From a virus (Duplodnaviria; Heunggongvirae; Uroviricota; Caudoviricetes), in IMG/VR virus record IMGVR_UViG_2602041568_000013: a DNA stretch of 5,704 bases. The stretch is one strand, 5' to 3'. Positions 217-5,704 of the stretch are shown piece by piece (positions within the stretch are counted from its first letter, which is position 1; each line of letters begins with the position of its first letter). A program made the translations under genes and the position numbers. Below the pieces are notes generated by a model, which saw only the letters and a list, made by a program, of their open reading frames with translations, had not been told where the DNA came from and did no database searches.

Positions 217-468
217 ATGGCCAGAACGATGACGGTTGATCTCGGCGATGAGTTGCGTGAATTTATCGAGTCCTTAATTGAATCCGGCGACTATCGCACC
301 CAAAGCGAAGTGATCCGTGAGTCACTGCGCTTACTTCGAGAAAAGCAAGCAGAGTCTCGCCTGCAAGCGTTACGTGACATGCTTGCAGAAGGGTTGAGTA
401 GTGGTGAAGCTCAGCCGTGGGAAAAGGACGCGTTTTTACGGAAGGTGAAAGCAGGGATAAGGAAATAA
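217..468 (+). CDS. ParD-family (ribbon-helix-helix) type II antitoxin, 83 aa
   Basis: Seen: ATG at 217 preceded by AGGAGAG (203-209); 83-aa ORF ending TAA 466-468. N-terminal region (TVDLGDELREFIESLIESGDYRTQSEVIRESLRLLRE) has the RHH/ParD-like pattern as I recall it; stop is 1 nt before the start of the downstream toxin-like ORF. Family assignment is from memory of ParD-like antitoxins, not a search. Confidence 0.8.
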   Translation: MARTMTVDLGDELREFIESLIESGDYRTQSEVIRESLRLLREKQAESRLQALRDMLAEGLSSGEAQPWEKDAFLRKVKAGIRK

Positions 469-469
469 T

Positions 470-766
470 GTGCGTATTATTAAACTCATGCCAAAAGCCA
501 ATGAGGATTTAGAAGGCATCTGGTATTACAGTTATCACCATTTCGGCGAACCACAAGCCGACAGATATGTGGAACATCTTTCAGACGTTCTCCAGATTCT
601 GAGTAACAATAATATAGGTACGCCCAGACCTGAATTAGGCGAAGGTATTTTTGTTCTTCCTTTTGAACGCCACGTAATTTATTTCCTGCAATCACCAGGG
701 GAAATTATCGTCATTCGTATCCTTAACCAAAACCAGGACGCCACCAGACATTTACACTGGAGCTAA
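470..766 (+). CDS. ParE/RelE-superfamily type II toxin, 98 aa (GTG start)
   Basis: Seen: GTG at 470 with AGGAA 5-6 nt upstream, arranged TAA-T-GTG with the antitoxin stop. N-terminus IKLMPKANEDLEGIWYYSYHHFGEPQADRYVEHL fits the ParE signature (x-L-x3-A-x2-DL-x2-IW-Y...G...QA-RY) as I recall it. The alternative ATG at 488 would cut into this conserved N-terminal segment, so GTG is preferred. Confidence 0.8.
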   Translation: MRIIKLMPKANEDLEGIWYYSYHHFGEPQADRYVEHLSDVLQILSNNNIGTPRPELGEGIFVLPFERHVIYFLQSPGEIIVIRILNQNQDATRHLHWS

Positions 767-868
767 ACCCGCCGATTGCGCTACAATGCCCGCCCTTAAA
801 GTGGGGGCACTCCCCTAACCGCTTCATCAGGTGAAGCGGATCTGACCTGTCATCAGAACGAGAGAATT

Positions 869-2230
869 ATGTTTAAACCGGAACTCCTTTCCCCGGCGGG
901 AACGCTGAAAAATATGCGTTACGCTTTCGCTTATGGCGCAGATGCTGTTTATGCGGGCCAGCCGCGTTACTCCCTGCGTGTGCGCAACAACGAATTCAAC
1001 CACGAAAACCTTCAGCTCGGCATCAATGAAGCCCACGCGCTGGGGAAAAAGTTTTATGTCGTGGTCAACATTGCCCCGCACAACGCCAAGCTGAAAACCT
1101 TTATCCGTGACCTGAAACCGGTGGTGGAAATGGGGCCGGATGCGCTGATTATGTCCGATCCAGGGCTGATTATGCTGGTGCGTGAGCACTTCCCTGAAAT
1201 GCCGATCCACCTCTCGGTGCAGGCTAACGCCGTAAACTGGGCGACGGTGAAATTCTGGCAGCAAATGGGCCTGACCCGCGTGATCCTCTCTCGCGAGCTG
1301 TCGCTGGAAGAGATTGAAGAGATCCGCAATCAGGTGCCGGATATGGAGATCGAGATCTTCGTTCACGGCGCACTGTGCATGGCCTACTCCGGTCGCTGCC
1401 TGCTCTCTGGCTATATCAACAAGCGCGATCCGAACCAGGGTACCTGCACCAACGCCTGCCGCTGGGAGTACAACGTCCAGGAAGGGAAAGAAGATGACGT
1501 TGGCAACATCGTACACAAGTACGAGCCGATTCCGGTGCAAAATGTTGAGCCGACGCTGGGTATCGGCGCGCCAACCGACAAAGTGTTTATGATCGAAGAA
1601 GCCCAGCGTCCGGGCGAGTATATGACCGCGTTTGAAGATGAGCACGGCACTTACATCATGAACTCGAAAGATCTGCGCGCCATCGCCCATGTAGAACGCC
1701 TGACCAAAATGGGCGTGCATTCGCTGAAAATCGAAGGCCGTACTAAATCTTTCTACTATTGCGCACGCACCGCACAGGTTTATCGTAAAGCTATCGATGA
1801 TGCCGCTGCGGGCAAACCGTTCGATACCAGCCTGCTGGAAACTCTGGAAGGTCTGGCGCATCGTGGCTATACCGAAGGTTTCCTGCGTCGTCATACTCAC
1901 GACGATTATCAGAACTACGAATACGGTTATTCAGTTTCTGACCGCCAGCAGTTTGTTGGTGAGTTTACCGGTGAGCGCAAGGGGGACCTCGCGGCGGTAG
2001 CGGTGAAAAATAAATTCTCCGTTGGCGACAGCCTTGAGCTGATGACGCCGCAAGGCAACATTAACTTTACCCTTGAGCACATGGAAAACGCCAAAGGCGA
2101 AGCTATGCCGGTAGCACCAGGCGATGGTTATACTGTGTGGCTCCCGGTGCCGCAGGATCTTGAGCTAAATTACGCGCTGCTGATGCGTAATTTCTCCGGG
2201 GAAACCACGCGTAACCCACACGGTAAGTGA
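869..2230 (+). CDS. yegQ: U32-family peptidase-like protein YegQ (TrhP; reported role in prephenate-dependent tRNA U34 hydroxylation), 453 aa
   Basis: Seen: 453-aa ORF, ATG 869, TGA 2228-2230, N-terminus MFKPELLSPAGTLKNM typical of U32 family and Cys-rich motif CMAYSGRCLLSGY...CTNACRW. Matches my recollection of E. coli YegQ; the K-12 order yegQ-cyaR-ogrK is consistent with what follows. Confidence 0.93.
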   Translation: MFKPELLSPAGTLKNMRYAFAYGADAVYAGQPRYSLRVRNNEFNHENLQLGINEAHALGKKFYVVVNIAPHNAKLKTFIRDLKPVVEMGPDALIMSDPGLIMLVREHFPEMPIHLSVQANAVNWATVKFWQQMGLTRVILSRELSLEEIEEIRNQVPDMEIEIFVHGALCMAYSGRCLLSGYINKRDPNQGTCTNACRWEYNVQEGKEDDVGNIVHKYEPIPVQNVEPTLGIGAPTDKVFMIEEAQRPGEYMTAFEDEHGTYIMNSKDLRAIAHVERLTKMGVHSLKIEGRTKSFYYCARTAQVYRKAIDDAAAGKPFDTSLLETLEGLAHRGYTEGFLRRHTHDDYQNYEYGYSVSDRQQFVGEFTGERKGDLAAVAVKNKFSVGDSLELMTPQGNINFTLEHMENAKGEAMPVAPGDGYTVWLPVPQDLELNYALLMRNFSGETTRNPHGK

Positions 2231-2261
2231 TTAATTTCGATTATTTTTCCCGGATGGAAAA

Positions 2262-2307
2262 TTCTTAGAAACCGATCACATACAGCTGCATTTATTAAGG
2301 TTATCAT
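2262..2307 (+). promoter_or_regulatory. cyaR promoter region: candidate CRP site plus -10 element
   Basis: Seen: 22-bp window 2262-2283 (ttcttagaaaccgatcacatac) with a perfect TCACA right half (2276-2280) and a weak left half, centred about -42.5 from the inferred start at 2315; -10-like TATCAT at 2302-2307 with a poor -35. This fits a class II CRP-activated promoter, which is how cyaR is described. Inference; no experimental start site available. Confidence 0.4.
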
Positions 2308-2314
2308 CCGTTTC

Positions 2315-2401
2315 GCTGAAAAACATAACCCATAAAATGCTAGCTGTACCAGGAACCACCTCCTTAGCCTGTGTAATCTCCCTTACACGGGCTTATTTTT
2401 T
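2315..2401 (+). ncRNA. cyaR: CyaR (RyeE) Hfq-dependent small RNA, about 87 nt
   Basis: Seen: sequence starting GCTGAAAAACATAACCCATAAAATGC..., containing the C-rich CCACCTCCTTA motif, ending in a 10-bp hairpin (2367-2376 / 2383-2392, one G-U pair) plus U-run TTATTTTTT (2393-2401). Matches my memory of E. coli CyaR located between yegQ and ogrK. Ends are approximate (a few nt). Confidence 0.8.
2375..2401. other. P2-type attachment-site core (27 bp), chromosome/prophage junction
   Basis: Seen: aatctcccttacacgggcttatttttt, whose reverse complement AAAAAATAAGCCCGTGTAAGGGAGATT equals the 27-nt P2 att core as I recall it. It overlaps the 3' half of the cyaR terminator and lies directly beside ogr, the gene at the end of an integrated P2 genome. 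Confidence 0.7.
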
Positions 2402-2463
2402 ACGTACAACAAATTGAAATAAAAGGATTTATTTCTGGTCACGTCCACACATTGACCACATCG

Positions 2464-2499
2464 ACAAAAAAAGCCCCTCGACTGAGGGGCTTTCTGTTT
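2464..2499. terminator. bidirectional intrinsic terminator (3' end of ogr; possible backstop for + strand transcription)
   Basis: Seen: perfect 7-bp GC-rich stem GCCCCTC (2473-2479) / GAGGGGC (2484-2490) with 4-nt loop, flanked by an A-run (2465-2472; U-run on the minus-strand transcript, just downstream of the ogr stop at 2504) and TTTCTGTTT (2491-2499) on the + strand. Confidence 0.7.
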
Positions 2500-2503
2500 G
2501 TAA

Positions 2504-2722
2504 TTACATCCACATAATTTGCTGCCCTGACGGCAACGGGTGCGGCCTCACGGCGTGGACTTCTCCCGGCTTCACGATGTATCGCTGTACCGACTCATAA
2601 GTGATGAACGTGGCGCTGCAATTCACGTTCTGGCACTGGTGATAACGCTCTTTTGTCGTGTCAGTGATATAGCGGCTTGTACGCGCATGTGCGGCATGCT
2701 GGCATAAAGGACAATGAAACAT
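2504..2722 (-). CDS. ogr: Ogr, P2 late-gene transcriptional activator (Cys4 zinc-finger), 72 aa
   Basis: Seen: 72-aa frame MFHCPLCQHAAHARTSRYITDTTKERYHQCQNVNCSATF... with CxxC...CxxxxC and GGAAGAGGTG ribosome-binding site upstream of ATG 2720-2722. The ORF track extends the frame to 2785 (93 aa); the 72-aa start is chosen because it matches canonical Ogr length and has the RBS. Confidence 0.9.
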   Translation of the reverse strand: MFHCPLCQHAAHARTSRYITDTTKERYHQCQNVNCSATFITYESVQRYIVKPGEVHAVRPHPLPSGQQIMWM

Positions 2723-2756
2723 CGCGAGCACCTCTTCCGGTTTTGTTGATGGTGCC

Positions 2757-2785
2757 ATTTTAGTTAATTTATCCTTATAAAACAA
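2757..2785 (-). promoter_or_regulatory. candidate sigma70 promoter for ogr
   Basis: Seen on minus strand: TTGTTT (2780-2785) - 17-nt spacer - TAAAAT (2757-2762), about 35 nt upstream of the ogr ATG. Inference from motif spacing only. Confidence 0.3.
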
Positions 2786-2803
2786 ACAGATAAAATAAAA
2801 ACA

Positions 2804-3967
2804 TTACTCATCATCTTCTGTTTCGTACTCCATATCAGAAAGCCTGACCTCAAGCTCCAAGGACGTCGTGAAGCCGCTATTATTCAGAAAATGTGTCACC
2901 TTAGTGATTGTCCAGTCCTGCTCGTCTATGACGCGCTTAAAGCCTGACACTCTGACCGGTGTTTCCGTGTAAATATCAGCACGACCAGTGGCAAGGCTGA
3001 TGGAGAACTCCGCAACGCCCCGTTGCAGTTTATCCCACTTCGCCTGAGCGGCGCGCATGGCCTGTGCTTTCGTGGCATATACCGTAGTCAGGGCAAAAAC
3101 GTTGTCAGCTTCACCGGCCATGTATTCACCTTCGCGCGCTTCCGGTACTTTTGGCGCTTTCTTCTGCCTGACCGGTTTCGCTTTCGGGTGCTCCAGTGCG
3201 CGCAGGTGTTTTTCTTTCTTTTTGCGTTTCAGTTTTACCTTCTGCTTTTGCGGCTTCGGGTCTTTGGTGTGTAACCACTTTGCCGTTACGCCGGTGTAGG
3301 CTCCACGGTCAGCAATCGCAAAATGATGGCGGTCACCGTCGCTGCGGGTGATGGTGACCTGCGGGATTTTTTTACCGCTGGCCGTCACTCCCTGCCCCGC
3401 TTTGAGAAACAGCAGTTTTCCCATTTTTACCGACACCTCACCGCCGTTGCGTTCTGCAAGACGGGTCAGAAATTTCGCATCAGACTCCTGCGACTGGTCG
3501 ATGTGCGGGATTTTAATTCCGGCCAGTGACGGAGCGACACTGGCTTCCAGCCTGTTACGGGAGGCTATCGCCTCAACAATCGCACCGAGCGTGGTGTCAT
3601 GCCATGAGCCTTCACGGCGGGAATTGAGCGTCCCGCGAAAATCTGCACTCCGTGCGCGGATGGTGACCACATCCGGTGCGCCCCGGTGTTCAACCTCATC
3701 AACGGTAAATTTCCCTTTGCATACCAGGGCAAAACCTTTCCAGCCGATATACACCGTCAGGACAGCGCCACGAATCGGTAGTCCGACCTGCCCGTCGGCA
3801 TCGTTCAGTTCAATATCAAGCTGGTCAGCCTCAAAGCCCCGGTTATCCGTCAGGGTCATGCTCATCAGACGGTCGCTGATATTGCCGGTAATATCCCTGC
3901 TGTCGAGTATCAGCATGTAATCCGGCGTCAGCGTACTGCCTGCATCAAATGTCAGTGCATCCAGCAT
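2804..3967 (-). CDS. D: P2 gpD-like tail protein (phage late control D family), 387 aa
   Basis: Seen: 387-aa ORF MLDALTFDAGSTLTPDYMLILDSRD...; length and N-terminus match my recollection of P2 gpD; position between U and ogr matches the P2 order T-U-D-ogr. Start ATG (3965-3967) overlaps the U stop. Confidence 0.93.
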   Translation of the reverse strand: MLDALTFDAGSTLTPDYMLILDSRDITGNISDRLMSMTLTDNRGFEADQLDIELNDADGQVGLPIRGAVLTVYIGWKGFALVCKGKFTVDEVEHRGAPDVVTIRARSADFRGTLNSRREGSWHDTTLGAIVEAIASRNRLEASVAPSLAGIKIPHIDQSQESDAKFLTRLAERNGGEVSVKMGKLLFLKAGQGVTASGKKIPQVTITRSDGDRHHFAIADRGAYTGVTAKWLHTKDPKPQKQKVKLKRKKKEKHLRALEHPKAKPVRQKKAPKVPEAREGEYMAGEADNVFALTTVYATKAQAMRAAQAKWDKLQRGVAEFSISLATGRADIYTETPVRVSGFKRVIDEQDWTITKVTHFLNNSGFTTSLELEVRLSDMEYETEDDE

Positions 3968-4446
3968 TATCCCGCCCCCGTCATACCCGTGAATTTAGTC
4001 GCCATACTGCCAGCCTTACCGATGAGCGATTCCGCCTGTTTACCGATATCGCCATAAAGCGCGGCCAGTGATTCATCAACGCGGGTGAGCGACAGCGTAA
4101 AATCAATTTTCCGGGGTGTGCCGTCTGCAAAGAAAATACTCCCTGTTTCACTCACCCTGCTGATGACATACATGCCGTAAATCATGCCGGTGCCATCCAG
4201 CAACGGCCACGCCCGCCCCTCCTCTGCCATCAGCCTGAGCGTGGTCATCGTCAGCTTGCCGCCGGTCAGTTCGGGATAAAGCACACCGGCAAGCGTGATG
4301 TTTTCCTCACCCACACCGAGAAACTGAAAAGCGTCCCGTTTACCGATACGGGAATTTGACGGCCAGCGATAATCTGATTCACGCTGCATGGTCTGGTGTG
4401 GCAGCGTCTGGCGCATAAAAACAAACATACCTAACGCGAGCATCAT
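3967..4446 (-). CDS. U: P2 gpU-like tail protein, 159 aa
   Basis: Seen: 159-aa ORF MMLALGMFVFMRQTLPHQ... with GGAGGTGA RBS upstream; length matches P2 gpU as recalled; stop TAA 3967-3969 overlaps the D start (TAATG). Confidence 0.92.
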   Translation of the reverse strand: MMLALGMFVFMRQTLPHQTMQRESDYRWPSNSRIGKRDAFQFLGVGEENITLAGVLYPELTGGKLTMTTLRLMAEEGRAWPLLDGTGMIYGMYVISRVSETGSIFFADGTPRKIDFTLSLTRVDESLAALYGDIGKQAESLIGKAGSMATKFTGMTGAG

Positions 4447-4460
4447 TTTTCGTCACCTCC

Positions 4461-5660
4461 TTAACCGTCATGCATCATGCTGGCACGGGCGCGCGCACGT
4501 TTATCCCGCTCGTATTTTTCGAGCGCATCCTGTAACTGGCGGTCGAGCTGTGTCCCCGGCGCAGTACCACCCGTCAGGCTGATGTGATATTCGTTTTTAC
4601 TCTGGTCTACATAAGAGCGGCCAGCCGGTGCCGTGACCGGCTGATAAGCCTGATAACCTGCATAAGAGCTGGTCGCCGGAATATAACCACCGCTGCCATA
4701 CGTGGCGGCTTGAGTTCTGGCGGCGGTCTGGTCAAGTGTGTCTGACTCTTTGTTGATAACACCGAGTTTTTCCAGTACCCAGTCAATACCACTGCGCAGT
4801 TTGTTGAACGCATTAAGCGGCAGCATCAGCGCGTCAGCCAGTGCCTGCCCGAACATGACGCCCGTGTCACGGCAACGGTTCAGGGTGTCCTGGGTGGCTT
4901 TGACCGGGGCGATCAGGTTTTTAAACCACTGCCACGCGGCCTGTAACTTTTCACCCAGCCAGTCAAACACCGGTTTAAGTGGCGTGAACAGTTCCCCCAC
5001 CGGCGCAAATGCCGCTTTCAGCCCTTCCACCACACCGCCAAAGAATGCGCTGACAGGCTCCCAGTATTTACGGATAAGCAACGCCCCGGCGACAATTGCG
5101 GCCACCACGGCCACAACCGGCCAGCTAATCGCCCCGATGGCCGTCATAACAGCACTGCCAACCGTCGTGAAGATTGCCCCCATTGCGCCTGCTGCCGCGA
5201 TGATGGCATTGATGCCAGTGATAACCGGCCAGGCTACAAGACCAATGGCACCGATGATGCCAATAAGCGCCAGCGCGCCACCGGCAATGATGCCAATGGT
5301 TGACGCCAGTGATTTGTTTTTCTGTATCCAGCCGTCGAGTTTTAACACATACTTTGTGGCCGTCTGTGTGAGCTTACGCAGTGCGCCTTCCTGCTGGTCA
5401 AACAGGTCTGTCCCTACCGCCTCATAAGCGGACTGAAACTCCTTAAAGTCACCGCCGAGGTTGTCCTGCATGATATTTACCAGCTCGGCAGTCTTCCCGT
5501 CTGAGGCTTTAAACGCAGCGGTCAGTTTGTCCAGCTTTCCGGTTGAGGCGGCAGTCATCAGCACGGCGGCGGCTGAGCTGGCCTCCTCCCCGAAAATAGT
5601 TTTCATATATTCAGCCTGCTGGGCAGTACCGAGCCGGTTTTTCTCAAAGCTGGCCTGCAT
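4461..5660 (-). CDS. T: phage tail tape measure protein (gpT-like), 399-aa C-terminal reading frame; true 5' boundary unresolved
   Basis: Seen: long Gly/Ala/Ile-rich hydrophobic block (ORF residues about 118-195) typical of tape measure proteins; position immediately upstream of U; stop 14 nt before the U start. An in-frame TAG lies 9 codons upstream of the first ATG (5688-5690) while the other two minus frames are open to the window edge, so the gene may be frameshifted, truncated or genuinely short. Confidence 0.8.
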   Translation of the reverse strand: MQASFEKNRLGTAQQAEYMKTIFGEEASSAAAVLMTAASTGKLDKLTAAFKASDGKTAELVNIMQDNLGGDFKEFQSAYEAVGTDLFDQQEGALRKLTQTATKYVLKLDGWIQKNKSLASTIGIIAGGALALIGIIGAIGLVAWPVITGINAIIAAAGAMGAIFTTVGSAVMTAIGAISWPVVAVVAAIVAGALLIRKYWEPVSAFFGGVVEGLKAAFAPVGELFTPLKPVFDWLGEKLQAAWQWFKNLIAPVKATQDTLNRCRDTGVMFGQALADALMLPLNAFNKLRSGIDWVLEKLGVINKESDTLDQTAARTQAATYGSGGYIPATSSYAGYQAYQPVTAPAGRSYVDQSKNEYHISLTGGTAPGTQLDRQLQDALEKYERDKRARARASMMHDG

Positions 5661-5704
5661 TTTGAACCGCCCCGGGAATCCTGGAGACTAAACTCCCTGA
5701 GAAA

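Follow-up and report, generated by a model that had tools for sequence, protein, structure and literature searches.

Genes and features of the window

The stretch of DNA analysed here (the window; 5,704 nucleotides) lies at offset 11 in a 5,726-bp ENA metagenome scaffold (contig L003). Towards its left end, a ParD antitoxin gene (217–468, plus strand, 83 aa) and the ParE toxin gene paired with it (470–766, plus strand, 98 aa) are situated immediately upstream of yegQ/trhP. The mechanical list of open reading frames (ORFs) also includes a 357-aa frame (827–1900, minus strand), which is wholly antisense to the conserved yegQ/trhP and is taken to be an artefact of that list. The gene for the sRNA CyaR (RyeE; 2313–2398, plus strand; Rfam, 100.7 bits) adjoins the right end of a prophage, the attR region being at 2399–2415. 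The blastn alignment with phage fiAA91-ss (L001) ends at window position 2415, and this loss of collinearity places the att site within about 17 nt of the 3′ end of CyaR.

The prophage genes that follow are on the minus strand. The first encodes the late-gene activator Ogr (2504–2722, 72 aa; Pfam Ogr_Delta, at 2994–3212 of contig L003) and is named ogrK in E. coli strain 600055; the 93-aa version in the mechanical list begins at an upstream TTG. Tail gene D, of the late control D family (2804–3967, 387 aa; Pfam Phage_GPD), and tail gene U (3967–4446, 159 aa; Pfam Phage_P2_GpU) are both of intact length, as in fiAA91-ss and strain 600055. Beyond U lies the 3′ part of the tape measure gene T (4461–5662, minus strand), and the remaining 42 nt of the window (5663–5704, plus strand) are the left terminal inverted repeat of IS629, its first 42 bases. 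Compared with the late operon FI-FII-E-E′-T-U-D, the genes U, D and ogr are in the right order downstream of T, and at the window edge IS629 takes the place of the upstream side.

Among the matches listed, strain 600055 is the closest complete genome. It carries a prophage at the same yegQ/trhP–CyaR site, in the order sheath, tube, E, E′, T (2,448 nt, 815 aa), U, D, ogrK and then trhP/yegQ, and is 99.73% identical to the window from 778 to 5662 (13 mismatches, no gaps). To the left of this segment, yegP stands in strain 600055 in place of ParDE, homology breaking at about 778 with 99.7% identity from there; the ParDE version is carried by many other E. coli genomes.

The tape measure gene remnant and the adjoining IS629 end

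The T remnant begins with the final two bases of codon 416 (GAA) and continues through codons 417–815 to the stop codon. In the ORF list of the window it appears as a minus-strand frame of 399 aa counted from its first ATG (4461–5660), and both this length and the ATG at 5660 agree with the initial annotation. The 399 residues are identical to residues 417–815 of the 815-aa T protein of strain 600055 (100% amino acid identity, zero differences). Read against the intact gene, the apparent start codon is the internal Met417, and it is because residue 417 is a methionine that gene finders call an ORF of this length. The full length of about 815 aa given in the initial annotation is right: T occupies 2,448 nt (815 codons and stop) in both fiAA91-ss and strain 600055.

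At the nucleotide level, the T region of the window is 96.9–98.1% identical to T of the 25 phage records that match it best, which are Peduovirus and relatives, including vB_EcoM-720R8, fiAA91-ss and P22H4, and it shares with Peduovirus the downstream order U-D-ogr-att. Unlike Peduovirus gpT, it retains residues 417–815 only, having lost its N-terminal half and the greater part of the PhageMin_Tail domain. That domain (Pfam PF10145) covers residues 239–440 of intact T (155 bits) and so extends only over residues 1–24 of the fragment. The earlier impression that fragment residues around 19–35 mark the end of the tape measure core was therefore essentially right. A Pfam search with the 399-aa fragment by itself gave no match to PhageMin_Tail. 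Set against a gpT of about 815 aa with a PhageMin_Tail domain, only 399 aa are left, and judged by this comparison the remnant is a gene fragment and not a functional member of gpT. The 90%-identity cluster that contains the 399-aa protein has 1,078 members, and the 14 listed besides the query are T proteins of 295–427 aa, mostly labelled as partial.

The position at which similarity to T is lost was located by comparing window positions 4400–5704 with 50,697 phage records and 5,426 complete E. coli genomes. Most of this region is covered by 73 phage records and about 1,579 E. coli records. Among the matches listed, P2-like phages and the matching E. coli prophages are collinear with the window up to 5662; all of the alignments start at query base 43, which corresponds to that position, and none crosses it. 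When the entire window was the query, 706 genomes matched over at least 80% of it, and all 25 listed end at 5662. Among the 5,426 complete E. coli genomes, no record covers at least 80% of a 105-nt query centred on the junction. As the alignments place it, tape measure homology ends sharply between 5662 and 5663, and this is no chance feature. On the T-sense strand the window edge reads TTTCTCAGGGAGTTTAGTCTCCAGGATTCCCGGGGCGGTTCA/AAATGCAGGCC..., the slash marking the change, while T of strain 600055 reads ...ATTCTGAAAGAAATGCAGGCC... (I L K E416 M417 Q A) at the same point. The junction in the window, ...GGTTCA/AAATGCAG, takes the place of ...CTGAAAGAAATGCAG... in intact T.

The 42 nt beyond the breakpoint (TGAACCGCCCCGGGAATCCTGGAGACTAAACTCCCTGAGAAA) are identical to known copies of the IS629 terminus at 42 of 42 positions. 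They match 168 phage records, 20 of them over all 42 positions (E = 8e-14), and almost all of these phages are Stx-converting. Phage BP-4795 has, 13 nt past the match, a CDS annotated as "putative transposase OrfA protein of IS629", and then OrfB; by this spacing the start of orfA is predicted 13 nt past the window edge, with transcription directed away from T. The IS629 unit of BP-4795 is 1310 bp long, and its ends, TGAACCG... and ...CGGTTCA, are the inverted repeats expected for an element of the IS3 family. The terminal inverted repeat in the window likewise begins with TG and matches known copies exactly. Only 42 nt of the element fall within the window, so the remaining identification comes from sister contigs and from annotated copies elsewhere. 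The initial annotation had proposed extending the sequence beyond 5704, and the contigs that permit this continue as IS629. Contig L003 runs 11 nt further into the element, and sister contig L008, which has the same junction, includes 140 nt of it (98 nt past the window), with 137 of the 140 identical to BP-4795 and, at the beginning of orfA, a partial gene of 28 codons on the opposite strand.

The same 42 terminal nucleotides are found in the copies of IS629 (IS3 family; isoforms IS1203 and IS3411) in E. coli prophages, where a prophage gene is a typical target; in O157:H7 genomes, 62% of IS629 copies lie within prophages or prophage-like elements (PMC3271280). What distinguishes the present case from known IS629 insertions is the site, since none of the 5,426 complete E. 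coli genomes has an insertion at codon 416 of T in a P2-like prophage at cyaR/yegQ.

Accounts of the IS629–T junction

The best explanation is that the window contains the right end of a P2-like (Peduovirus) prophage beside cyaR and yegQ (trhP), the T gene of which was cut by IS629 after the first base of codon 416, and this is very probable. The 1310-bp element would have entered T at that point with its left end against the remnant (T′) and its transposase genes reading away from it. The 3′ half of the gene (residues 417–815) is what remains, and it is called as a 399-aa ORF. We lean slightly towards a simple insertion, in which the 5′ half of T and the remaining prophage would lie on the far side of the element. 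IS629 target duplications are of 3–4 bp (PMC3271280), and here the duplication would be AAA or AAAT; the 5′ half of T and its duplication would then be followed by the right end of IS629, TGAACCGYCCCGGGTTTCC....

The other form that such an event may have taken is an IS629-mediated deletion or rearrangement that took away the 5′ half of T, together with part or all of the prophage upstream, and left a T′-U-D-ogr remnant. This is a sub-case of the same explanation and a serious possibility, if a little short of an even one, and the remnant would then be an intermediate on the way to the ogrK-yegZ state of E. coli K-12. The cryptic P2 remnant of K-12 occupies the same chromosomal site and has the same prophage end (ogr beside CyaR and yegQ/trhP), and just ogrK and a fragment of D remain there, which is in keeping with a deletion. 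Compared with K-12, the window has full-length ogr, D and U together with half of T, and, provided that decay is under way here, it would be at an earlier stage of it. The full length of U, D and ogr speaks against a deletion, as does the complete identity of T′ to T of a complete prophage, which suggests a recent event. In favour of it, matching target duplications were present at just 21 of 47 IS629 sites in O157:H7 genomes, so that rearranged flanks are common (PMC3271280).

The absence of a reciprocal junction would also fit a deletion, and it was looked for in two ways. A nucleotide query (T up to ...TATTTACCATTCTGAAAG, 0–6 nt, then the IS629 right end) had no match in the JGI metagenomes, a collection in which the known junction is likewise missing. 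A chimeric protein query, composed of T residues 347–416 and the read-through into the IS629 right end, returned no T–IS chimera in a non-exhaustive search from which full-length T was absent too; its T-like matches were ordinary T fragments continuing ...ILKEMQASF, and its match list was flooded by unrelated genes fused to IS629 ends. The known junction itself had no match in the complete E. coli genomes, the GTDB species representatives, the JGI metagenomes or the IMG/VR contigs. Since it is missing from these collections as well, the searches for its reciprocal carry no weight.

A functional role for the insertion is conceivable. Some E. coli have an IS-excision enhancer (IEE) that promotes precise excision of IS3-family elements, and IS629 might thus act as a reversible switch, precise excision restoring T and an inducible P2-like phage; alternatively, the T′-U-D half might be kept for use by the host. 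We consider either of these most unlikely.

An assembly chimera, in which an IS629 end was misjoined to an intact T and the junction exists in no cell, is very improbable. The window does come from a short-read metagenome scaffold, and the junction occurs in none of the complete genomes searched. An exact look-up of the 399-aa protein found it in seven contigs from seven samples, however, and five of these (L003, L004, L005, L008 and L009) have the identical IS–T junction. Three types of assembly are represented among them (ENA scaffolds, a k141 contig and Logan contigs), and the samples with the junction are SRR8316626, SRR18174062 and those behind ERZ28644738, ERZ28647821 and ERZ27264781. 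Recurrence in at least five samples and across three assembly pipelines is a strong argument against a one-off misjoin, and a random one would not recur at the same base, nor coincide with the terminal TG of an insertion sequence. On this evidence the IS629–T junction is real. The junction contigs terminate 28 to 140 nt within the element, and the breaks of the other two (L006 and L007) are precisely at 5662. Insertion sequences present in many copies cannot be crossed by short-read assemblers, which is why the contig, and with it the window, ends inside IS629.

Some further features of the sister contigs may be recorded here. L006 and L007 (3,247–3,248 bp) span exactly window positions 2415–5662, from the att boundary to the IS629 junction, indicating that both ends of the prophage segment are branch points of the assembly graph in those samples. 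L004, L006, L007 and L008 encode an identical 399-aa T′, and L004 and L008 share the IS629 junction. Relative to window positions 2415–5662, these four contigs have 4–33 substitutions, clustered in U (about 4216–4342) and in D/ogr, with 0–2 silent changes in T′ itself. Such clusters could reflect recombination downstream of a single ancestral insertion, or a mixing of strains in the metagenome scaffolds.

The initial annotation, made from the window sequence, had recognised an interruption of T and a possible defect of the prophage, and this part stands; all three of the mechanisms it offered fail, the cause being the IS629 junction at codon 416. The first was a point lesion, a frameshift or nonsense change (for example an indel in the CCCGGGG run at 5670–5676) in an otherwise continuous T. 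An in-frame TAG does occur 28 nt upstream of the ATG, at 5688–5690 as had been reported, and of the other two minus-strand frames described as open from the window edge, one ends at TGA 5603–5605 as given and the second at TGA 5644–5646, not at 5642–5644. The 42 nt upstream of 5662 are dissimilar to T in any frame, intact T reading ...ACCATTCTGAAAGAAATGCAG there, and are 100% IS629. The TAG and the CCCGGGG run both lie in its terminal inverted repeat, as do the two frames open at the edge, so that a check for a homopolymer indel at this run would concern the repeat. With the edge bases belonging to IS629 and not to T, a point lesion is refuted and has a negligible probability. The second and third mechanisms, an overlap with the E′ frameshift extension of E and a genuine half-length tape measure, are equally negligible, having nothing but the ORF length in their favour: the E′ frame, which in P2 ends just inside the 5′ end of T, overlaps in relatives the first 8 nt of T, and the breakpoint is about 1,250 nt further downstream (in strain 600055, L002: E′ 4607–4762, T start 4755, breakpoint equivalent 6001), and the bases at the window edge are IS629; relatives at 97–100% identity, including strain 600055 at the same locus, all have an 815-aa T, and the fragment begins in the middle of the PhageMin_Tail domain. 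The T protein of strain 600055, the coordinates of E′ and the extent of PhageMin_Tail together refute both.

Consequences for the prophage and its annotation

The position of the breakpoint, the identity of the element and the intact allele of strain 600055 are shown by the comparisons above, and the consequences given here are inferred from them. In P2, T is needed for building the tail and for setting its length. The T gene of the window prophage has lost residues 1–416, and with them about 90% of PhageMin_Tail, and is separated from the late promoter, which lies upstream of FI; for these reasons, and given the established biology of P2, it is almost certainly a non-functional pseudogene. 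If T is inactive, the prophage would be tail-defective, in that it could not build tails. Expression of U and D, which lie downstream of the interruption, is probably lowered by polarity.

All of the components are known ones, namely the Peduovirus late operon, the P2 att site beside cyaR/yegQ and IS629, and their combination is a case of ordinary IS-driven prophage decay together with an edge effect of assembly. The insertion site is a new one for a known element and is unrecorded among the complete genomes; the kind of event is not new. The 399-aa "tape measure protein" of this lineage should accordingly be annotated as a pseudogene fragment beside IS629, as it represents no short tape measure, and a tail-defective state should be recorded for the prophage. 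As a general rule, where an ORF appears to start within a few dozen bases of the end of a short-read contig, a search for an IS terminus should precede its biological interpretation.

As a side observation from the protein searches, the matches (P0001, P0030, P0039 and others) revealed that many short ORFs in public data are assorted genes that read through into IS629 ends. Several of these have been misnamed, for instance as 'outer membrane usher protein FimD', an annotation artefact tied to IS629.
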